A stretch of DNA of 64,000 bases from a virus: the IMG/VR virus record IMGVR_UViG_3300045988_111022. The stretch is one strand, 5' to 3'. Shown piece after piece: positions 5,701 to 36,029 of this stretch. The first letter of the stretch is position 1. Every line of letters begins with the position of its first letter. Made by a program: the position numbers and the translations under genes. Under the pieces are notes generated by a model. It saw nothing but the letters and a program-made list of their open reading frames with translations. It ran no database searches and was not told the DNA's origin.

Positions 5701-5892
5701 GTGAACATTGAAATTCAGTATCAGGCCGAGGATGGCGAGATTCAGTATTACCACTTTGAGTCGTGGGAACTGGCTGAAGACGATGCCTTTCGGGAGGCCA
5801 TGCAGGCATTCCGCAGCACTCGCACAGGAAAGAATAGGATGCTCTCTATCCGGGATGCATCGATTGGCGCAGGCCGCAACTGGAAAGAATAA
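5701..5892 (+). CDS. Hypothetical protein (63 aa, GTG start)
   Basis: GAGGAGG upstream. Packed in the operon. Confidence 0.5.
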   Translation: MNIEIQYQAEDGEIQYYHFESWELAEDDAFREAMQAFRSTRTGKNRMLSIRDASIGAGRNWKE

Positions 5893-5994
5893 CCCGCCTG
5901 ATGATGGCCGCTGGTATCGGCCGAAACCATTTTCGTGGCATCACGAGGATGGTCGCGGGAACCAACACCGCAAACCAAGGAAAGGAAGATTCAC

Positions 5995-6327
5995 ATGAAG
6001 TATGAAATCTACCAGCTGAAAGAGGACACCATGGAGCAGGTAAAACTGCGGTTCATGGCGTCCGATCAGGCCGCACAGCTGGGCGGCATCCACCGGGAGA
6101 ACTACCGTCTGGTGTACGAGGGTAATGTGGAAACCCGAAAGGACGCACAGCAGACGCTTGATGGCTTGTTCCGCAAGTTTAACATCGACAGGCCCGCAGG
6201 CTTCGAGGGCCACAGCTTGAGCGTGTCGGACATCATTTACCTCGCCGATGGGGAATCCTCCGACTGGTGGTTCTGCGATGCTTACGGTTGGAAGCTTCTG
6301 AGTGGAGAAGAATGGGGGCAGACCTGA
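5995..6327 (+). CDS. YodL-like small domain protein (tentative)
   Basis: MKYEIYQLKEDT...RFM...ENYRLVYEG...LDGLFRKFNIDRPAGFEGHSLSVSDIIYL...WWFCDAYGWKLL resembles the YodL-like domain seen on Firmicutes conjugative elements. ATG at 5995 after GGAAAGGAAG. Confidence 0.45.
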   Translation: MKYEIYQLKEDTMEQVKLRFMASDQAAQLGGIHRENYRLVYEGNVETRKDAQQTLDGLFRKFNIDRPAGFEGHSLSVSDIIYLADGESSDWWFCDAYGWKLLSGEEWGQT

Positions 6328-22912: not shown

Positions 22913-23584
22913 ATGGATAAGCAAAAGATTAAGAGTGTTCCGAGGCTGACGACCGACAACCCGGTGGACAATTTTCAGACTGCCCTCAACTTTACTGACG
23001 TCAGCGAGGACGGCTGGGTATGGCTGCGGCAACCTGAAATGGCACTGACCGAGTATGCGCGGCAGCTCGTCAAGGGGCATGGCAGCAGCATCGATCTGGG
23101 CTGCAACGATATGGAGCTCTCCGAAAGTCTGACCGATCACCTCTTCGACGACCCGAAGCAGAGCATTGATGGACTGATCGCAGAGCACTACACGATTTTG
23201 TGGGCCTACGCGACCCTGCGGGAAAAGCTCAAATGGTACGAGGATGCAGGAATCCCGGTCATTCCTAATTACGGTCTGAGTACCATCCGGCGGGCGATCA
23301 ATCGGTACGGCACCGCCCCTCAGCTCCAGATGGCGATCAAGGAAATGTCAGAGCTCACGAAGGCAATCTGCAATCTCCAGCGGGCCGTAACCTTCAACTA
23401 CCGCAACGGTGCGAAGATCAAGGTCGCCCACGAGAGCGTCAGGGAAGAAATCGCGGATGTCTATGTTATGCTGGCACAGCTTGTGGAAATCATCGGAAAG
23501 CCGGAAGAAGTACAGCAGATTGTGCTCGAAAAGCTCGACCAGCTCAAAGGCTGTTTAGACGACGGGGAGGTACGCAGTGAGTAA
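22913..23584 (+). CDS. Protein with C-terminal MazG-like NTP-pyrophosphohydrolase-like helix bundle
   Basis: QLQMAIKEMSELTKAICNLQR...VREEIADVYVMLAQLVEIIG resembles the MazG EExxE/D core. Confidence 0.45.
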   Translation: MDKQKIKSVPRLTTDNPVDNFQTALNFTDVSEDGWVWLRQPEMALTEYARQLVKGHGSSIDLGCNDMELSESLTDHLFDDPKQSIDGLIAEHYTILWAYATLREKLKWYEDAGIPVIPNYGLSTIRRAINRYGTAPQLQMAIKEMSELTKAICNLQRAVTFNYRNGAKIKVAHESVREEIADVYVMLAQLVEIIGKPEEVQQIVLEKLDQLKGCLDDGEVRSE

Positions 23585-27112: not shown

Positions 27113-27679
27113 ATGACTATCCCGGAAGAAATGATGGCCGTTATTCAGGAAACTGCAAGAAAGGCTGCTCGTGAGGGCGCCAAGGAAGTTATCGCAGAAC
27201 AGACCCGCAAAGCCGCAGGCCGCTGTGACCGCCGACTTCGGAACACGAAGCTGTTGCTGAAAAACTATCGGATGTTCAAGAAGCACTGCACGGGCGCGGT
27301 CTATACGGACGAAACGGGTGACCATGACGGCAAGGAAGAAGAAACTGCGCTGGAACTGCTTGATATGATGCTTCAGCGCAATAACGCGATTACGGTCGAA
27401 TCGATCCGCAACTCCTGCCGCCGTACAAAAATCATGGTTCGTCATATTGATTCGATGCTGGCCCTGTACGAGACGTACTGCGAACAGAGCAAGAATGAGG
27501 CCCATAAGCGCGGCTACCGCATCATCAAAGCGATGTACATTGACGACGAGGCCAAGTCCATTGAGCAGCTTGCGGCGCTGGAGGGCGTGAGCACCCGTCA
27601 GGCATACCGAGACCACGATGCAGCCGTTGAAAAAATCTCGGCGCTCATGTTCGGCATTGATGCCTTGGACATGGAGTAG
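27113..27679 (+). CDS. Sigma-70 region-4-like / ArpU-RinA-like late transcription regulator
   Basis: LLLKNYRMFKKH... and C-terminal HTH SIEQLAALEGVSTRQAYRDHDAAVEKISALMFG. Sits immediately upstream of the late/packaging genes. Confidence 0.5.
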   Translation: MTIPEEMMAVIQETARKAAREGAKEVIAEQTRKAAGRCDRRLRNTKLLLKNYRMFKKHCTGAVYTDETGDHDGKEEETALELLDMMLQRNNAITVESIRNSCRRTKIMVRHIDSMLALYETYCEQSKNEAHKRGYRIIKAMYIDDEAKSIEQLAALEGVSTRQAYRDHDAAVEKISALMFGIDALDME

Positions 27680-27684
27680 GCCGA

Positions 27685-27729
27685 TGTCAAAATCATGTCA
27701 TTTACACGGCATGAAAAATGTGGTAGAAT
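27685..27729 (+). promoter_or_regulatory. Candidate late promoter with upstream TGTCA-N6-TGTCA element
   Basis: TGTCAAAATCATGTCA (27685-27700). TTTACA (27701-27706)-17 nt-TAGAAT (27724-27729), with TG at 27721-27722 (extended -10). Confidence 0.55.
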
Positions 27730-27760
27730 AATACCGTAAAATTCTAATCATAGCGCATTG

Positions 27761-27794
27761 CCCGCCCGGTTTCGCCACCGAGCGGGTATTTTTA
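27761..27794 (+). terminator. Terminator-like hairpin inside the operon leader (possible attenuator)
   Basis: CCCGCCCGG (27761-27769) / CCGAGCGGG (27778-27786), 1 mismatch, followed by TATTTTTAT. Located between the promoter and the first gene. Confidence 0.45.
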
Positions 27795-27873
27795 TGCCCG
27801 GAAAGGAGGCAGAAAACCGCCGCTCCCCAATTTGACCCGCAACGCCAGCGGGATAGCAAAGAAGGGAGAAAAA

Positions 27874-28461
27874 ATGAATCAGCAAGTAGTGTATCAGGAT
27901 ATTTCGCAGATCCATCCCTATGAGAACAATCCCCGGAACAACGAAGCGGCCATTGAGCCTGTTGCGCAGAGCATCAAGCGGTTTGGCTTCCGTGTCCCCA
28001 TCCTCATCGACGGAAAAGGAACTATCATCGCAGGACACACCCGCTATGAGGCCGCAAAACGGCTTGGCATGGACAAAGTGCCGTGTATTCGGGTCGATGA
28101 CCTGACGGATGAGCAAATCCGCGCATACCGCATCGCAGACAACAAGGTGGCCGAGGCTTCTTCGTGGAATGATGATGTTCTCCGCGCCGAAATGGACGCG
28201 CTGAAAGCCTTGGACGTTGATTTGACGGACACGGGTTTCAGCGAGGTGGAGCTTGATGGGCTTCTTCGGGAAGTGGAGGATGCCGACTTCGAGGAGTTCT
28301 TTACGGAACCCGTCCAACAGCCGCCCAAAGCGGCCGATGCAGAGCAGAGCGCCGAGACCCAGCAATCTACCCAACCGGAATCTTCTCAGCTCGCTGTGCC
28401 GCAGCAGAGCGGCTCTAAGCTCATCCAATGTCCGCATTGCGGAGAATGGTTTGAGACATGA
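27874..28461 (+). CDS. ParB N-terminal-domain protein with C-terminal zinc ribbon (DpdB-like role possible)
   Basis: ISQIHPYENNPRNN...VPILIDGKGTIIAGHTRYEAAKRLGMDKVPC...LTDEQIRAYRIADNK are classic ParB/Srx-fold motifs. CPHCGEW at the C-terminus. Confidence 0.75.
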   Translation: MNQQVVYQDISQIHPYENNPRNNEAAIEPVAQSIKRFGFRVPILIDGKGTIIAGHTRYEAAKRLGMDKVPCIRVDDLTDEQIRAYRIADNKVAEASSWNDDVLRAEMDALKALDVDLTDTGFSEVELDGLLREVEDADFEEFFTEPVQQPPKAADAEQSAETQQSTQPESSQLAVPQQSGSKLIQCPHCGEWFET

Positions 28462-29207
28462 GGCTATGTCTGGCAGGTACATTCCCGGCCGAGAAGATTG
28501 TGAAAGAGTACCATCCAGAATATGTTCTGGAGAGCTTCTTTTACATCCGACCATGGCAAATCGAAGAAATTCCAAAATGGAAAATGTTCCTGCTCGACAG
28601 CGGGGCATTTACTTTTATGCACGGTATAGAAGCGTCTTCAAAGCCGGTAGATTGGGATGGATACCTGAGTCGGTACATCGACTTTATCAACCGCAACAAC
28701 GTGCAGCATTTCTTCGAGCTGGATGTGGATTCCATCGTAGGTTATGACGCTGTAAAACGCATGAGAGCGCGCCTTGAAGCAGAGACAGGAAAGCAAAGCA
28801 TTCCGGTCTGGCACCGCTCCCGTGGTCTGGACGAGTTCAAGCGCCTGTGTAGGGATTATCCCTATATCGGCATCGGCGGCTTCGCAATCAAGCACATACA
28901 GCCCAGCGAGTACGGCTATATCCGTCGTTTGGTGCAGTATGCAAATTCTTGCGGGGTGCGGGTGCATGGTCTGGGGTACACCAAAAAGGATGCAGTGAGT
29001 TTCGGCTTTTACAGCGTGGACAGCACGACATGGACCACACAGGTCAATTTCGGAGGGCTGTCATACTTCAATGGCACAGAGATGGTCGTGGTCAGACCGC
29101 CCAAGGGGATGATCGGCGCAGACTATCGCCGCCGCCGGGAGTACTCGTTGAGAGAGTGGATAAAGTACCAGAAATACCTTGATACGAAAGGAAAATGGCG
29201 TGGATAA
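28458..29207 (+). CDS. dpdA: TGT-fold DNA-guanine transglycosylase-like protein (DpdA-like)
   Basis: FLLDSGAFTF aligns with the TGT DSGGFQ catalytic-Asp motif. YSVDSTTW aligns with the second Asp motif (FDCV/FDS). IGIGG barrel strand. ATGA overlap with the ParB-like gene. Confidence 0.6.
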   Translation: MRLCLAGTFPAEKIVKEYHPEYVLESFFYIRPWQIEEIPKWKMFLLDSGAFTFMHGIEASSKPVDWDGYLSRYIDFINRNNVQHFFELDVDSIVGYDAVKRMRARLEAETGKQSIPVWHRSRGLDEFKRLCRDYPYIGIGGFAIKHIQPSEYGYIRRLVQYANSCGVRVHGLGYTKKDAVSFGFYSVDSTTWTTQVNFGGLSYFNGTEMVVVRPPKGMIGADYRRRREYSLREWIKYQKYLDTKGKWRG

Positions 29208-30042
29208 AGAAATCGTCTACCGCGTCGAGGATGGCATGGACAGGGAAAAGATTCTCTGCACCACCTACCAGATGCGGAATTTTTATATGCAGTTCAGAGA
29301 CGGATTTTTCACCAATCTGGACGTTATGAACTATATCCAGCACCTCGCCGCCGCCCATATGGCGAAAAAAGGGATGAACGTGCTGGATGTGTGCTGTGGG
29401 CGCTCTCTGATGCTCCCGCTGCTGCGCTACTACGCAAAGGACATTGCATCCTACACTGGAGTGGACATCAGCAAGGCGAACATCAAGGAAGCGATGCGCG
29501 GCGCAACTGCAAAGAACCTCGAACCCAAGGATTTGGCCTCCTACTACCCGTTCCGGGTGGGCTGGAAGCTGGGCAACGTCGCAGAGATGTCTAAGGTCAT
29601 CCCGGCGGGCTTTGCCGACTTCGTGATTTACACCTCCGCCATCGAGCATATGCACCCTACGGACGGCGCAAAAAGCCTTGTAGAATGCTACAAGGTGATG
29701 AAGCCGGGTGCAAAGATGTTTCTCTCCTGTCCGAACACCCCAGGCAATGGGTATCAAACCCAGTACCGCGCTCATGTCTATGAGTGGGGCTACGATGAAC
29801 TGAAAGCCAAGCTGACCGAAATCGGATTCAGTATTGTGCAGGAGGTCGGTTTGGTCACCAGCGTCCGCGAAATGGACGAGTTCTATTCCAAACAGCCGTC
29901 GGCGCTCAAGGATTTCTATGAACGCATGAAGTCCTATGTCCCGTCTGCATTTCTCACAGCGTTTATGGCTATCCCATTCCCGCGTGAGGCGAAAGAGCTG
30001 TTGTTCATCGTCCAGAAGCCGAAAGGAGAGGAAAATGCCTAA
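29179..30042 (+). CDS. Class I SAM-dependent methyltransferase (start uncertain: 29179, 29200 or 29233)
   Basis: VLDVCCGRS motif I, then VDIS, then FVIYTSAIEHM. No DNA-MTase DPPY/NPPY or PC motif. Confidence 0.75.
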   Translation: MIRKENGVDKEIVYRVEDGMDREKILCTTYQMRNFYMQFRDGFFTNLDVMNYIQHLAAAHMAKKGMNVLDVCCGRSLMLPLLRYYAKDIASYTGVDISKANIKEAMRGATAKNLEPKDLASYYPFRVGWKLGNVAEMSKVIPAGFADFVIYTSAIEHMHPTDGAKSLVECYKVMKPGAKMFLSCPNTPGNGYQTQYRAHVYEWGYDELKAKLTEIGFSIVQEVGLVTSVREMDEFYSKQPSALKDFYERMKSYVPSAFLTAFMAIPFPREAKELLFIVQKPKGEENA

Positions 30043-30346
30043 GTTCAAGAATGAGTATGGGGTGTCGAAAATCAAGTACACCCAGAAGTGCAGATGCTTT
30101 TGCCCTATCGGAAAGGCAGACTACACGAACAACTTCACCGTGACTATCACTCCGAAGAAGTGGATCCCGGACTACTGCGAAATCGACAAGTTCATTCGTG
30201 AGCAGCTGGATGGAAAGAGCCTTGTCATTGAGGACGCCGCCTGCAAGCTGAAGCAGTGGCTCACGGGGGAGATTCATCCCTACTGGGTCGAGGTCGAGTC
30301 GGATGTGACCGACGGTGTGCACGGCCATGTAACGGTAACAGTATAA
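30035..30346 (+). CDS. QueF-like T-fold protein (preQ0 reductase/amidinotransferase family)
   Basis: CFCPIGKADY aligns with QueF LCPxTGQPD (catalytic Cys/Asp). ...VIED... and PYWVEVESDV...G align with the QueF core. The E-x-K-S-x-K NADPH motif is not conserved. GGAGAGG RBS. Confidence 0.6.
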   Translation: MPKFKNEYGVSKIKYTQKCRCFCPIGKADYTNNFTVTITPKKWIPDYCEIDKFIREQLDGKSLVIEDAACKLKQWLTGEIHPYWVEVESDVTDGVHGHVTVTV

Positions 30347-30360
30347 GGGAGGGGCGCAAG

Positions 30361-30822
30361 ATGAAAAATACTCGTGCTCTTTGCCAGACCGCCGTTGTTG
30401 CAGCATTGTATGTGGCGCTGACCACCTTGAACCCCCTGTCGTGGGGTGCAATCCAATTCCGGGTTGCAAATATGCTCTGTGCACTCCCGTTCAAGGACAA
30501 GAAATATGCCCCGGCGGTTCTGCTGGGAATCGCAATCGCAAACGCAACCAGCCCGTTTGGGCCTGTCGATGTGGCCTTTGGTCTGATGGCTGAGGGCGTG
30601 GCGTATCTCCTTGTTGTTTGGGGGCCGTGGAAAAAGCTGGGGATTTTGTGGAAAGCTGTTATCCTCTCTTTGTCCGTGGCTCTGTTCATCGGGGTGGAGC
30701 TGTACGCAATGGTGGGAGCGCCGTTCCTGCTGACGGCCGCAGGGCTGTTCGTTGGCACTTTCTTGGCCGTGGAACTCGGCAACATGGTGATTTCTAAAAC
30801 CGCTCTTGCAAGAATCGTGTAA
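30361..30822 (+). CDS. queT: QueT queuosine-precursor transporter (ECF S-component type)
   Basis: AVVAALYVALTTLNPLSWGAIQFRVANMLCALPFKDKKYAPAVLLGIAIANATSPFGPVDVAFG closely follows the QueT signature (AALYV.LT...S.G.IQFR..E.L..L.F..KY...G..IAN..S.FG..D). Confidence 0.8.
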   Translation: MKNTRALCQTAVVAALYVALTTLNPLSWGAIQFRVANMLCALPFKDKKYAPAVLLGIAIANATSPFGPVDVAFGLMAEGVAYLLVVWGPWKKLGILWKAVILSLSVALFIGVELYAMVGAPFLLTAAGLFVGTFLAVELGNMVISKTALARIV

Positions 30823-30936
30823 GAGGGGGCGCGGCGCTGGCTCTGCAAAGGGTCGGCGCTTTTTCTTTGGAACAACATAACCGTCAGGCCAAATACCGGG
30901 CGAGCAGAACAAAGAGGGATAGTGGTGGCGATGTAG

Positions 30937-31791
30937 ATGGAAACGCGAGACAAGGCGTTCACCCTTTATAAGAAAGGGATGGGATGCACCGAAATCTCAA
31001 AGAAGCTGGGCGTATCGCTGAACACGGTCAAGTCTTGGAAAAAGCGGTATTGGGATGCACAAAAGGGTGCACCCAAGAAGCGCACCCCGTCGCACCCAAA
31101 GGGTGCATCTTCAAAATGCACCCAGCAAGACCCGGCGGCTCAGCCTGAGAAGAAACCGAATCTCGGCGGCGCGCCGAAAGGGAACGTCAATGCTGTTGGC
31201 AATCATGGCGGGGCACCGCCGGGAAATCAGAACGCGCTAAAGCACGGCGGTTGGTCTGCTGTGATGTTTGGCGCGTTTTCCGAAGAAAACCAGAAAGCTA
31301 TACAGGACTGCACGAAAGACGTGGATGCAGAGGACCTGCTGATACAGGAGCTTCAACTGCTGACCGCCCGCGAAGCATTTCTGCTCCAGCGCATTACGGC
31401 GGCTCAGGAAAAGAAGCAGCACATCCAGTCGGTGCATACATCAAAATCCAGCAGGTCTTTTACCCGGCTGGATGAGGATAAAGAAAAAGAGGCCCACGAC
31501 AAGGAGGTTTACATTGAGCGGATAGATGCAAAGGTGCAAAGGGAAGAGCGCCTTCCTGGCACCAGCGTTGAGACATCAACCACCACCGAATCAAGCTACC
31601 TTATCGTGGAGCGCTTAGAGCGGCTGTTGACCGATGTACAGCGCCAGAAGTCTAAGGTGATACAGCAGCTTGCCGACCTGCGCAGAATGAGCAACAGCGG
31701 CAAGAATGAGCTGGTAGACGACTGGGTAGCGGCAGTCGAGGCGGCGGACGCAGAAGTGGAGGGTGAAGACGATGGCGCTGAGACAACGTGA
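30937..31791 (+). CDS. Terminase small subunit
   Basis: N-terminal HTH (MGCTEISKKLGVSLNTVKSWKKRY) and GAPKGNVNAVGNHGGAPPGNQNALKHGG repeats typical of TerS/YjcR-like proteins. Precedes TerL. Confidence 0.75.
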   Translation: METRDKAFTLYKKGMGCTEISKKLGVSLNTVKSWKKRYWDAQKGAPKKRTPSHPKGASSKCTQQDPAAQPEKKPNLGGAPKGNVNAVGNHGGAPPGNQNALKHGGWSAVMFGAFSEENQKAIQDCTKDVDAEDLLIQELQLLTAREAFLLQRITAAQEKKQHIQSVHTSKSSRSFTRLDEDKEKEAHDKEVYIERIDAKVQREERLPGTSVETSTTTESSYLIVERLERLLTDVQRQKSKVIQQLADLRRMSNSGKNELVDDWVAAVEAADAEVEGEDDGAETT

Positions 31792-33190: not shown

Positions 33191-35539
33191 GTGAAAAAAG
33201 TTATTCCCGGAAAAATTAAAACACAGCTGCGCCTTGACGGTTACTATAATGTGCTGAACAAGTACGGCACCCAGCACGACAGCACGGAGTACTACCAGTG
33301 GGCGTCTGGCTCTGCGGTAAGCGATACGGAGCTGGCTGATCTCTATGCAGGAAACGGGTTGTTCTCAACCATTATTGATGCCCCGGCGGACGACGCAACC
33401 AAGAACGGCATCGACCTCGGCATCAAGGACAAAGACTTGCAGAAACAGCTCGACAACCACTTGCAGACCATCCGATACCAGAGCAAATTCGCCAAGGCTT
33501 TGCGCTGGGCGCGGCTCTTTGGCGGTGCTGCTGTGGTGATGCTGGTTGACGACGGGCGGCTCCTGCAGGATCCTTTGAACTGGCGTGACGTGCACGGCGT
33601 CGAAGAGCTGTTGGTATATGGCCGCAACGAAATGTATCCTCTTTGGGTCAATGGGTATGAGAACAACCCGGACGATGAGGATTACCGCCGGGGAGGCACT
33701 GGCATCCCGGAGTACTACCAAGTCAACAGCGTGTACGGCAACTATGTTGTGCATTCGTCCAGATGCCTTGTTTTCCATAACTCGGACATCCCGGAAAGCT
33801 CCACTATGGCTAATCTCTACCGCACATGGGGCATCCCGGAGTATCTGCGCATTCGTGAAGAGCTGAGAAATGCCAGCATAGGCCCCGGCTATTCTATCCG
33901 CCTGCTGGAGCGGCTGTCGATGGTGACCTACAAGATGAAGAATCTTGCTGGTGTGCTTTCCACGGCAGACGGCGAGGATACGGTTCTTCAGCGTATGGAA
34001 ATGCTTGACCTTGCCCGTAATCTGCTGAACATGGTCATTATTGATGCCGACGGCGAGGATGTGGGCGTTCAATCCCTGTCTGTTGCTGGCGTTAAGGACA
34101 TTCTGGACAATGCCTGTGCGATGTTGTCTGCTGTATCTCATATCCCACAGACGCGGCTTTTTGGGCGTTCCCCGGCGGGCGAGAATGCCACTGGAGAGAG
34201 TGACCTTGAGAATTACAAGGAATTCGTCGGAGGTCTCCAAAACGGTGACCTCCGCGATAACACCCGTACCCTCGTTGAGCTGATTCTTCGCGGCATGGTT
34301 TGGAACAGGGAAGTCGAGGAGATACCTGAGTACACCGTGACCTACAAGAGCGCGTGGAGCCCGTCTGACGATGAAAAGGCAGCACAAGACCAAGCTGCCG
34401 CAGTGGCACAGCTCACCAGAGCGCAGACCGCTGGCACATACGTCACAAATGGAATTGTCGAAGCTGAAGAAGTTCGCCGTGCGATGGTTCGGGACGAACA
34501 GTTTGACCCGGAGAATATTCTCACGGAAGCGGACATCCACCAAGACTGGGGTCTTGGCGGAGCCGATACCCAGCAGGAAGCCGCTGATGGTCAGCAACAG
34601 AACGTCGCGGACGCAAGCGGTCTTGTTACCGATGAGGGAGACTGCGGCTATGTGGCGGGCTTTGTCGTGCAGGATGGCAAGATCCTCTGCGGGCGTCGCT
34701 CCGATGGTCAAGGCTGGTGTGGCCCCGGTGGGCATATCGAGCCGAAAGAAACGCCGGGGGTGGCCTTCCGCCGGGAAGCCAAAGAAGAGTTTGGAATTGA
34801 CGTTGGGAATATTACCTATCTTGGTAACTGCAAAGGAAAACCGGATGAAATCCTCCCTGTGCAGATATACCGCGTCAACGACTATGCAGGTATCCCGGTG
34901 TGCGATCAGGAAGAGATGTTCACCGCCACATGGTTCACCCCGGAACAGATTCTTGCCCAAGAGGTCCCCGGCGGGCTGGTGTTCGACCCATTCCGCAGGA
35001 GCGTGGAAGAATACCTCGACCAGCTGGGCCTGACGCTGGATGACTTCGACCCCAATAAGCACAAACGCGATGAGGACGGAAAGTTCTCCAGCATGGGGAA
35101 CACAACATCAAAAGATGAATCGGGCAAGGAAAATTCGTCAAAAGACTTGAATGATTCCCAAAGTCATGCTAAAATAAATTCTAACGCAGTTTCGGCAAAA
35201 GGCGCAAACGCTTTCAAAGTGAAAGGGTTTCCCAACAAGCAGAAGCTGAACAACCACTGGCAGAACGGAAGAACCCACGCCGCTGAGTACGCTCCCGATG
35301 GCATTACAACAAAGGAGCAGTACGAAAAGCGGGCGGTTCAACTTCTGGAAAGCCCCTGTGGGAACGGTATCAAGGGCTATAAGACAAAAGATGGCCTTAT
35401 ATGCCGATACGATACGAAGAAAAATGACTTTGCGAAAGGTTCCCCGGAGAAAGGCGTAAGAACGATGTTCAAGCCCGATGATGGGGAAGAGTATTATAGA
35501 CGCCGACTTGAGGCCGAGGGAATAGAGAACGATGAATGA
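33191..35539 (+). CDS. Portal protein (DUF1073-type) fused to a NUDIX hydrolase domain and a C-terminal nuclease-toxin-like domain
   Basis: N-terminal ~470 aa are DUF1073 portal-like. NUDIX box GGHIEPKETPGVAFRREAKEEFGI is at nt 34727-34798. The C-terminal ~140 aa (HWQNGRTHAAEY...ICRYDTKKNDFAKG...RTMFKP) resemble BECR-type nuclease modules of polyvalent phage proteins. Confidence 0.75.
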   Translation: MKKVIPGKIKTQLRLDGYYNVLNKYGTQHDSTEYYQWASGSAVSDTELADLYAGNGLFSTIIDAPADDATKNGIDLGIKDKDLQKQLDNHLQTIRYQSKFAKALRWARLFGGAAVVMLVDDGRLLQDPLNWRDVHGVEELLVYGRNEMYPLWVNGYENNPDDEDYRRGGTGIPEYYQVNSVYGNYVVHSSRCLVFHNSDIPESSTMANLYRTWGIPEYLRIREELRNASIGPGYSIRLLERLSMVTYKMKNLAGVLSTADGEDTVLQRMEMLDLARNLLNMVIIDADGEDVGVQSLSVAGVKDILDNACAMLSAVSHIPQTRLFGRSPAGENATGESDLENYKEFVGGLQNGDLRDNTRTLVELILRGMVWNREVEEIPEYTVTYKSAWSPSDDEKAAQDQAAAVAQLTRAQTAGTYVTNGIVEAEEVRRAMVRDEQFDPENILTEADIHQDWGLGGADTQQEAADGQQQNVADASGLVTDEGDCGYVAGFVVQDGKILCGRRSDGQGWCGPGGHIEPKETPGVAFRREAKEEFGIDVGNITYLGNCKGKPDEILPVQIYRVNDYAGIPVCDQEEMFTATWFTPEQILAQEVPGGLVFDPFRRSVEEYLDQLGLTLDDFDPNKHKRDEDGKFSSMGNTTSKDESGKENSSKDLNDSQSHAKINSNAVSAKGANAFKVKGFPNKQKLNNHWQNGRTHAAEYAPDGITTKEQYEKRAVQLLESPCGNGIKGYKTKDGLICRYDTKKNDFAKGSPEKGVRTMFKPDDGEEYYRRRLEAEGIENDE

Positions 35540-35795: not shown

Positions 35796-35871
35796 GCAGT
35801 CATAGCTCAGTTGGTAGAGCGCCTGCCCTCCAAGCAGGATGCCGCGGGTTCGAGCCCCGTTGACTGCTCCA
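35796..35871 (+). tRNA. tRNA, probable Gly (anticodon UCC) with C at position 33
   Basis: Hand-folded cloverleaf: acceptor GCAGTCA/TGACTGC, D arm GCTC-AGTTGGTA-GAGC, anticodon arm CCTGC-CCTCCAA-GCAGG, T arm GCGGG-TTCGAGC-CCCGT. CCA is encoded. Confidence 0.75.
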
Positions 35872-35874
35872 TAT

Positions 35875-35947
35875 CGAGGGTTGGCCAAGTTGGATAAGGC
35901 ATGGGCCTTTGACTCCCAGACCGCCGGTTCGAGTCCGGTACCCTCGA
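35875..35947 (+). tRNA. tRNA-Gln (anticodon UUG)
   Basis: Acceptor CGAGGGT/ACCCTCG, D arm GCC-AAGTTGGATAA-GGC (Gln-like), anticodon loop CTTTGAC, T arm GCCGG-TTCGAGT-CCGGT. No encoded CCA. C31-U39 mismatch. Confidence 0.7.
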
Positions 35948-35952
35948 CTTAT

Positions 35953-36029
35953 GCTGGTGTAGCTCAGTTGGACAGAGCAGTTGATTTGTAATCTTCAGGT
36001 CGTGGGTTCAAATCCCATCCCCAGCTCCA
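35953..36029 (+). tRNA. tRNA-Thr-like (anticodon UGU) with weakened stems
   Basis: Acceptor GCTGGTG/CCCCAGC (one U-C mismatch). Anticodon arm GTTGA-TTTGTAA-TCTTC (two U-U mismatches). T arm GTGGG-TTCAAAT-CCCAT. CCA is encoded. Confidence 0.55.

Follow-up and report, generated by a model that had tools for sequence, protein, structure and literature searches.

Gene content and organization of the module

The virus record IMGVR_UViG_3300045988_111022 comprises 64,000 nucleotides (nt), a stretch analysed at its full length and referred to here as the window. At positions 27685-30822 it harbors a module of five plus-strand genes, overlapping or closely spaced, between a promoter and a terminator. 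In order, these genes code for a ParB N-terminal-domain protein (g1, 195 amino acids (aa), 27874-28461), a DNA guanine transglycosylase DpdA of the tRNA-guanine transglycosylase (TGT) superfamily (g2, 249 aa, 28458-29207), a class I S-adenosylmethionine (SAM)-dependent methyltransferase (g3, about 280 aa, from 29179 or 29200 to 30042), a T-fold protein of a QueF-L-like family (g4, 103 aa, 30035-30346) and QueT, the S component of an energy-coupling factor (ECF) transporter for queuosine (Q) precursors (g5, 153 aa, 30361-30822). All five identities had been proposed in an initial annotation made from the sequence, and they hold on Pfam, PHROG, fold and profile evidence. Judged from homology and gene context, the module is probably a salvage-fed system for the 7-deazaguanine modification of DNA in a temperate phage of Faecalibacterium prausnitzii.

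The arrangement is compact: g1 and g2 overlap by 4 nt (ATGA), the start of g3 overlaps g2, g3 and g4 overlap by 8 nt, and 14 nt separate g4 from g5. The start of g3 is probably the GTG at 29200. The genes terS, terL and portal follow directly downstream, so that the module heads the packaging genes of a tailed phage; this agrees with the earlier view that the module is phage-borne. Purifying selection acts on all five genes, with ratios of nonsynonymous to synonymous substitutions (dN/dS) of 0.03-0.31 (0.03 for g3 and 0.15-0.31 for g4), figures that are approximate because dS is close to saturation.

The DNA guanine transglycosylase

The product of g2 is a DpdA by fold, homology and catalytic residues. 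It matches phrog_887 (3e-58) and, as the earlier assignment would predict, shows homology to phage 9g DpdA (tblastn identity 28.5% across 76% of the query, E 5e-6), and its nearest relative in an isolated phage is encoded by Fusobacterium phage phiFN37 (37.7% identity). DpdA homologues number 3,471 in all. No match was obtained with Pfam (including the TGT family), with NCBIfam or with DpdA in PADLOC, and the protein has neither a PUA nor a zinc domain. Searches of PDB sequences with the DpdA family profile gave chance matches only, and fold comparison was needed for its placement: the AlphaFold2 model, with a mean predicted local distance difference test (pLDDT) of 90, has human, archaeal, mouse and Zymomonas TGTs as its top Foldseek matches in the PDB (E 2.5e-6 to 1e-4).

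An alignment of g2 with the validated DpdAs of phages 9g and CAjan shows D47, G49, F51, H119, H170 and D188 unchanged throughout. The motifs concerned are D47-S-G-A-F51 (LLDSGAF) and S-x-D188-S (VDSTTW), and D47, G49 and F51 are also invariant in 36 family members. The initial annotation, which had recognized a TGT fold with two catalytic-Asp motifs, was therefore correct on both points. All members of the g2 family share D89, D91, H119 and H170, which are candidates for base-recognition residues; the wider set of DpdAs keeps H119 and H170 without exception, and D91 has an aligned counterpart in most of them. In the DpdA of S. Montevideo, Asp95 is the general acid/base with the gate residue Phe99, Asp256 is the nucleophile, and Asp130 and His181 take part in base recognition (PMC10164549). 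By analogy, D47 would be the general acid/base of g2, F51 the gate Phe and D188 the nucleophile, the equivalence of D188 with Asp256 being drawn through the alignment of phage DpdAs and not from a structural superposition. We infer that g2 exchanges guanine for a 7-deazaguanine in phage DNA.

A conserved core with interchangeable supply cassettes

The prophage was found, with 97-100% protein identity, in a complete chromosome of F. prausnitzii and in Faecalibacterium metagenome-assembled genomes, and the exact module proteins are present on at least 1000 contigs. The five-gene order followed by terS is kept in all module-spanning loci of the lineage (about 65-70 fetched). GenBank contains no close isolate: in a megablast search, the structural region matched only Faecalibacterium phage Roos, in terL and at 71%. 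Likewise, the sole match of the whole module among GenBank phages in blastn is a 231-bp ParB-domain stretch of a Streptococcus phage methyltransferase.

Related modules share part of this gene set. The sister lineage L082 (loci L082-84) harbors ParB-DpdA-methyltransferase-QueT in the same slot upstream of terS, without the T-fold gene. Locus L092 (3730-7348) has ParB-DpdA-methyltransferase-QueD-QueE-FolE-terS, and L085/L088 have PolA-DpdA-methyltransferase-x-QueD-QueE-FolE (10001-13157 in L088); in L088 the flanking 10 kb at each end contain neither QueC nor QueF nor a transporter. As L088 and L092 lack QueC and QueF, the phage-encoded pathway would stop at 7-carboxy-7-deazaguanine (CDG) unless the host supplies QueC. 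Distant T-fold relatives (31-43% identical to g4) have a YhhQ/Vut_1 transporter as the next gene downstream in L074, L076, L078, L079/L080 and L089, and adjoin DpdA and/or QueC in L071, L077 and L079. Such T-fold modules often include ParB, and sometimes a small haloacid dehalogenase (HAD)-like or phosphoribosyltransferase (PRTase)-like protein or a different class I methyltransferase. Finally, the isolated Fusobacterium phage phiFN37 (L072) carries ParB-DpdA-DUF6884-YhhQ.

ParB-DpdA-methyltransferase is therefore a conserved core, and the cassettes that accompany it, at least three in number (QueT, T-fold plus QueT, or QueD-QueE-FolE without QueC), are interchangeable. The non-orthologous exchange of transporters (QueT for YhhQ) beside the T-fold family, and the presence of transporter and de novo cassettes in one slot, suggest that g5, and probably g4, supply the precursor used by DpdA; these swaps are the strongest evidence for that role. 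The initial annotation regarded a transporter-dependent, synthesis-free module as unusual. It is on the contrary recurrent and common, given the number of contigs and the occurrence of transporter-linked DpdA modules in several lineages and in an isolated Fusobacterium phage, and the salvage reading is supported.

Some of the related modules contain further genes. Between DpdA/QueC and the T-fold gene, a small PRTase-like protein and HAD-like phosphatases are encoded in L076 (2332-3098), L077 (1841-2188) and L079 (5351-5701); the PRTase-like proteins have a phosphoribosyl pyrophosphate (PRPP)-motif region and a weak match to Pfam Pribosyltran. PRTase and HAD steps are known from the pathways of deazapurine nucleoside antibiotics, an analogy that hints at nucleotide-level intermediates in the T-fold modules. 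In L072, DUF6884 (5748-6182; PF21818, 6e-41, with a weak YaaA-like match) lies between DpdA and YhhQ, the slot of the T-fold gene elsewhere, and is a further candidate accessory protein. The same phage, phiFN37, has three ParB-like genes within 10 kb.

Predicted precursor uptake

The product of g5 lies above the curated cut-off of Pfam PF06177 (96.5 bits, cut-off 33.7, E 2.3e-27, 136 of 141 profile positions) and matches phrog_27044 (2e-67), in agreement with its earlier assignment to QueT. Homologues of FolE, QueD, QueE, QueC, QueF and YhhQ were not detected by phmmer among the 650 stop-to-stop open reading frames (ORFs) of the window, and the reported lack of FolE, QueD and QueE, as well as of QueC, is thereby confirmed. 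Ruminococcaceae are generally devoid of Q synthesis genes, and the queT gene of F. prausnitzii is under a preQ1-III riboswitch (PMC11130926, PMC11625349). QueT has been reported to favour preQ1 (PMC11625349). From its family, g5 would import a 7-deazaguanine precursor, most likely preQ1 or preQ0.

The reliance of the host lineage on salvaged preQ1, and its regulation of queT, would also suit a cassette acting on the tRNA queuosine metabolism of the host (as an auxiliary metabolic or lysogenic conversion function) and not on phage DNA. QueT would then raise preQ1 uptake, and the TGT-like and accessory enzymes would alter the Q-tRNA status for translation in the phage or the lysogen. QueT alone would help a Q-auxotrophic lysogen, and DpdA does belong to the tRNA-guanine transglycosylase superfamily. 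We nevertheless consider this explanation very improbable. The g2 protein is homologous to the DNA-acting DpdAs of 9g and CAjan, without a Pfam TGT match and without PUA or zinc domains, and a DNA-binding ParB-domain gene lies beside dpdA or clusters with it in six lineages. The promoter-proximal terminator and the position at the head of the packaging genes suit late lytic and not lysogenic expression. Moreover, the phage tRNA genes (35796-36029; Gly-TCC, Gln-TTG and Thr-TGT) include none of the queuosine (GUN-anticodon) families.

The ParB-domain protein

The g1 protein matches Pfam ParB_N (3e-8) and phrog_620 (8e-63) and contains a ParB-type GHTR box. The zinc ribbon initially ascribed to it amounts to a single C-terminal CPHC knuckle, which recurs in distant homologues beside DpdA. 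It had also been likened to DpdB, the ParB-like protein that assists DpdA in bacteria. DpdB proteins have a DndB/SspE-like architecture and a DGQQR NTPase motif (PMC10164549), whereas g1 shows neither in its 195 aa and has the GHTR box instead. PADLOC gave no DpdB match, the best profile being the ParB domain of type II methyltransferases (2.7e-31), and the likeness to DpdB was abandoned.

Since g1 is not of the DpdB type, it is solely its recurrent adjacency to dpdA that speaks for a role in assisting the enzyme. The gene immediately upstream of dpdA codes for a ParB_N protein in the lineage of the window and in L072, L076, L082 and L092; in L074 and L077 a ParB_N gene belongs to the dpdA cluster but is one to four genes off. 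The g1 protein is probably a DNA-binding or loading partner of DpdA, analogous and not orthologous to DpdB.

The methyltransferase

The third gene matches Methyltransf_23, 11, 25 and 31 of Pfam and carries the motif VLDVCCGRS, as expected from the earlier assignment to class I SAM methyltransferases; it is also weakly similar to mRNA cap guanine-N7 methyltransferases. The family numbers 755 members, with 67-97% identity among the matches listed. In every context examined, salvage and de novo clusters alike, the g3 gene follows dpdA directly on its downstream side. No other part of the module is as conserved, g3 showing 68-75% identity across the L082, L088 and L092 lineages, where the DpdA next to the conserved g3 homologue is 66% or 43% identical or undetectable by tblastn. 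A conservation reaching so far beyond that of DpdA suggests either a very strong constraint or a recent horizontal spread of the methyltransferase gene.

DpdM, a known tailoring enzyme, is a DUF3109 protein with CxxxCxxCC metal sites (PMC10516641). No DUF3109 match and no CxxxCxxCC motif were found in g3, which matches class I SAM families only; a DpdM-like nature is thus discarded, g3 being a class I Rossmann methyltransferase unrelated to DpdM. The methyltransferase of the L077 module was considered as an orthologue of g3 and rejected, the similarity being at fold level only (E 0.008). From gene linkage, g3 would methylate the base, either on its 7-substituent or elsewhere, and either ahead of its insertion or following it.

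A QueF-L-like T-fold family

No Pfam, PHROG or NCBIfam model matches g4. A word-indexed search gave 37 close relatives and an exhaustive profile search 209 cluster representatives, all of about 100-110 aa. Conversely, g4 and two distant relatives had no tblastn match in 50,697 GenBank phage records, and a fold search of BFVD gave weak T-fold matches only. One third-party annotation (TPA) record of GenBank labels a member of the g4 cluster 'archeaosine synthase' by automatic annotation. Neither CAjan gp39 (107 aa, near yhhQ) nor the ORFs of phiFN37 could be included in the family, a hidden Markov model search giving nothing at E<1.

The model of g4 (pLDDT 66) adopts a bbaabb T-fold (E-E-H-H-E-E by DSSP), and its top PDB matches in Foldseek are the archaeosine synthase QueF-L (5jyx/5k0p; template modelling score 0.66-0.76, 18-20% identity), followed by GTP cyclohydrolase I and dihydroneopterin aldolase (DHNA). 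Against PDB sequences, the family profile retrieved QueF-L over nearly its full length (hmmsearch, 9e-4) and the DHNA of H. pylori with a match limited to the helical segment (1.3e-5). In hhalign, the family aligns with QueF-L with 91.6% probability (E 8e-7, 75 columns), against 14.7% for the QueF of B. subtilis, an approximate value. Pfam QueF does not match g4 and weakly matches 8 of the 76 diverse family members over which residue conservation was counted. The family therefore stands nearer to QueF-L than to QueF.

All of these 76 members have E66 and H96, and 75 have C23; G26, Y30, D46, Y47 and N6 vary only rarely. In hmmsearch and hhalign, C23 aligns with the thioimide-forming Cys (Cys55 of B. 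subtilis QueF, Cys21 of QueF-L) and E66 with the substrate-anchoring Glu (E97 of B. subtilis QueF, the HEE segment of QueF-L). In place of the NADPH motif E(S/L)K(S/A)hK(L/Y)(Y/F/W), the family has the segment (D/E)49-(V/I)-(D/E)-K-F-I. A metal cluster formed by C19, C21, C23 and C48 was rejected, as C23 alone is conserved in the wider family. The protein thus represents a new QueF-L-like T-fold branch with part of the QueF catalytic set. The initial description of g4 as QueF-like was right on the fold, the retained Cys and the missing NADPH motif but not on the Asp, which at D29 occupies Cys+6, a position held by Trp in 30 of the 76 members and by Asp in only 6. As the conserved catalytic Asp is missing, the proposal that this enzyme converts the precursor is left without a defined chemistry. 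Two observations concern the variation of g4: it is the most diverged of the five genes within the phage lineage (66-72% identity, against 86-97% for its neighbours, in L001-L070), and one cluster, P0005, has the appearance of a recombinant between two groups of alleles.

The resemblance to QueF-L raises the possibility that g4 is a true analogue of this enzyme, converting dPreQ0 in DNA, or free preQ0, into the amidine G+ with ammonium, and that the phage DNA carries the known dG+ or a methylated form of it. QueF-L is the best structural and profile match, the g4 Cys aligns with its Cys21, the NADPH motif is lacking and the automatic GenBank label points the same way; the association of T-fold and QueC genes elsewhere would also fit a route from CDG through preQ0 to G+. 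We find this unlikely all the same. The residue corresponding to the catalytic Asp28 of QueF-L is a Tyr in 69 of the 76 members, and the identity to QueF-L is only 18-20%. In addition, the tight adjacency to a transporter suggests a free-base substrate, whereas the QueF-L of P. calidifontis uses preQ0-tRNA only (PMC5485725), and the preQ1 that QueT reportedly favours has no nitrile.

Proposed pathway and nature of the modified base

Under the salvage reading, QueT would dock on the energising ECF module of the host and bring in preQ1 or preQ0 from the gut pool. As the phage queT has no recognisable preQ1 riboswitch, import could continue when the riboswitch-controlled queT of the host is off. 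DpdA would swap guanine in the phage DNA after replication by a two-Asp mechanism, with the ParB-domain protein acting in loading. More weakly, the conserved residues suggest that Glu66 of the T-fold protein may bind a 7-cyano-type deazaguanine and that Cys23 may attack its nitrile to give a thioimide, from which an amidine, an amide or an acid might form with no need for NADPH. Methylation of the base before or after insertion would fall to the class I methyltransferase, and the modified base would protect the phage DNA from restriction. This sequence of import, insertion by DpdA and tailoring had been outlined in the initial annotation; the exchange of cassettes fits it, but the DpdB-like role of the ParB protein, the QueF-like chemistry and the DpdM-like methyltransferase had to be given up.

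The de novo cassettes without QueC suggest a CDG-based chemistry, and all cassettes might accordingly deliver CDG. The T-fold protein would then be an NADPH-independent 'preQ0 nitrilase', acting through a thioimide, then a thioester, to the acid and so renewing CDG from the preQ0 that is imported, and the methyltransferase would esterify the carboxylate to leave a CDG methyl ester in DNA, a ninth natural derivative. Two independent versions of the de novo core have QueD-QueE-FolE without QueC or QueF, and CDG would be the end point in gut Ruminococcaceae, given their general lack of Q synthesis genes. In the T-fold protein the Cys and Glu are retained and the NADPH motif is missing, enzymes of the Methyltransf_11/23/25 type include many O-methyltransferases, and a DpdA can insert CDG (PMC10516641, Table 2). 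This scheme is quite unlikely even so. T-fold and QueC genes co-occur in L071, L077 and L079, where QueC, by turning CDG into preQ0, would create a futile cycle. The L082 lineage has QueT without a T-fold gene, the hosts of L088 and L092 may supply QueC, and the sequences bear no sign of O-methylation.

Several observations weigh against the salvage reading, in whole or in part. The de novo cassettes lack QueC, yet some T-fold modules have it, and no single substrate scheme fits all contexts. The sister lineage L082 can dispense with the T-fold gene, the model of the T-fold protein is moderately confident with the Cys loop as its least confident part, and the general acid/base Asp (Cys+7) is replaced by Tyr30 in most of the family. 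The base is only a candidate methyl acceptor of g3, suggested by gene linkage. ParB-like genes are frequent near phage packaging genes, and the adjacency of g1 and dpdA could be partly coincidental, as g1 has no DpdB features. Finally, specificity differs among members of the QueT family and is unreadable from sequence (PMC11130926).

The final base is not predictable from sequence. With two accessory enzymes, g3 and g4, that are candidates for enzyme families without a characterised member, it may be new; a tentative possibility is that the methyltransferase and the T-fold enzyme make a 7-deazaguanine derivative outside the eight known in DNA, in one of the most prevalent prophages of F. prausnitzii. 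Candidates are the CDG methyl ester and a methylated amidine or amide. In the literature searched, a class I methyltransferase as a conserved partner of DpdA, a transporter-linked QueF-L-like T-fold family and the swapping of cassettes appear not to have been described. A core with plug-in precursor-supply cassettes appears as a widespread design of gut phages, and the prophage is present in sequenced, cultivable strains of a keystone gut commensal, among them that of NZ_CP186691.1.

DpdA-based 7-deazaguanine modification of DNA is an established phage counter-defence. If the proposed pathway is correct, a phage can, in a host auxotrophic for Q, hijack an ECF transporter and so feed the hypermodification of DNA. 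Its base supply might then depend on queuosine precursors from other gut bacteria, so that anti-restriction chemistry could be coupled to cross-feeding. The pathway would also bring to light a methyltransferase new among the tailoring enzymes, perhaps with a DNA base that is new as well, and would explain sequencing or restriction anomalies of F. prausnitzii phage DNA.

Promoter, leader and neighbouring genes

A sigma-70-type promoter with an extended TG (TTTACA-17-TAGAAT, 27701-27729, plus strand), identified by consensus scan and already proposed in the initial annotation, precedes the operon, and seven diverged loci retain it. Promoter-like sites are no more numerous in the region than expected by chance (4, against 3.4 in shuffled sequences). 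The -10 region TGnGnTAnAAT and the subsequent CGTAAAATTCTAATC block are kept in the seven loci, the conservation spanning the promoter and the next 20 nt. The leader that follows (27730-27873) is structured and conserved, with the CGTAAAATTCTAATC block invariant directly after the -10 element. Within this 145-nt leader, a promoter-proximal GC-rich hairpin followed by a T-run (27760-27795, plus strand) resembles a terminator or attenuator and is maintained by compensatory changes (one pair is CG in three sequences and GC in three). A predicted helix between CTCCC (27823-27827) and GGGAG (27864-27868) would sequester the Shine-Dalgarno sequence of g1.

An Rfam scan of 27400-31000 gave no riboswitch or other family on the phage operon, either at gathering thresholds or at E<=5, and a known riboswitch in the leader was therefore rejected, although the leader is structured and conserved. 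It may be the start of an antitermination-controlled late operon or a new regulatory RNA. At the other end, a strong intrinsic-terminator-like hairpin of 12 pairs with a T-run lies between queT and terS (30833-30860, or 30833-30870 for the element as a whole, plus strand).

Just upstream of the promoter, positions 27113-27679 encode a 188-aa protein (phrog_1558) whose C terminus weakly matches transcriptional regulators; the protein is a candidate for late activation or antitermination of the operon. Further upstream of the module, a MazG-like nucleoside triphosphate pyrophosphohydrolase is encoded at 22913-23584 (phrog_2245, 6e-107). The portal protein downstream (33191-35539; phrog_15528, 1253 bits) contains a fused NUDIX/MutT hydrolase domain at residues about 490-591, and the same Pfam pair of portal and NUDIX was found in locus L001.

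Comparison with known systems

To our knowledge, every characterised phage with DpdA either synthesises the base itself or relies on a host able to do so. In the Queuovirinae, guanine is replaced after replication, with an anti-restriction effect. The DpdAs of their members 9g (dG+) and CAjan (dPreQ0) are homologous to that of the window (about 21-28% identity) and share its catalytic Asp, Phe and His, and CAjan also carries YhhQ. They encode the full FolE-QueD-QueE-QueC set, whereas the module of the window has no synthesis genes, includes in addition a class I methyltransferase, a T-fold protein and a protein with a ParB domain, and has QueT in place of YhhQ. The yhhQ gene of CAjan is dispensable (PMC7544227). 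A 2019 study already pointed to phages with DpdA only, perhaps reliant on precursors from the host or from import, and to homologues of YhhQ in phages (PMC6884629).

Streptococcus phage Dp-1, whose DNA contains dPreQ1, is like the phage of the window a Firmicute phage with QueT (by annotation), DpdA and a QueF-family T-fold protein, but it has the de novo genes QueC, QueD and QueE plus QueF. The two QueT proteins are about 46% identical over one third of their length. As phage YhhQ and the QueT of Dp-1 are already known, the presence of a transporter among the deazaguanine genes of a phage is not new in itself. Phage QueFs, including the unimodular group to which that of Dp-1 would belong, reportedly keep the NADPH motif and act as reductases (PMC10516641); the T-fold protein of the window, in contrast, lacks this motif and has no Pfam QueF match. 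By annotation, phiFN37, the nearest isolate for g2, has a similar ParB-DpdA-x-transporter layout with no synthesis genes nearby, but with YhhQ/Vut_1 and not QueT, and with DUF6884 in place of the methyltransferase and T-fold genes.

The bacterial Dpd system likewise combines a TGT-family DNA transglycosylase, acting by a double-displacement Asp mechanism, with a ParB-superfamily protein. It has the DpdB ATPase and DpdC, whereas g1 is of the short ParB_N kind found fused to phage DNA methyltransferases. The restriction components of Dpd are absent from the module because it would serve phage counter-defence. The QueF-L of P. calidifontis (5jyx, 5k0p) shares with the g4 family a unimodular T-fold of about 100 aa, a Cys in a CP(I/L) loop, a helix Glu and the lack of the NADPH motif. 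It differs in the low identity (18-20%), in its general-acid Asp, missing from g4, and in the absence of the His96 and D46-Y47 proper to the g4 family; QueF-L is found in archaea, and the g4 family in phages beside transporters.

Known tailoring enzymes of 7-deazaguanines include Gat-QueC, ArcS and QueF. Eight 7-deazaguanines have been found in DNA, and DpdM, DpdN and DpdL are further tailoring enzymes (PMC10516641). The Cellulophaga phages with DpdM (mdPreQ1) and DpdL (dDG) follow the same concept of a dedicated 7-deazaguanine tailoring enzyme, although with unrelated proteins: DpdM is a DUF3109 metalloprotein whereas g3 is a class I SAM enzyme, and DpdL is a QueD paralogue whereas g4 is QueF-L-like, with no PTPS match. 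Phage phiST, finally, has FolE-QueD-QueE without QueC together with a CDG-tailoring enzyme, an organization that parallels that of L088 and L092.

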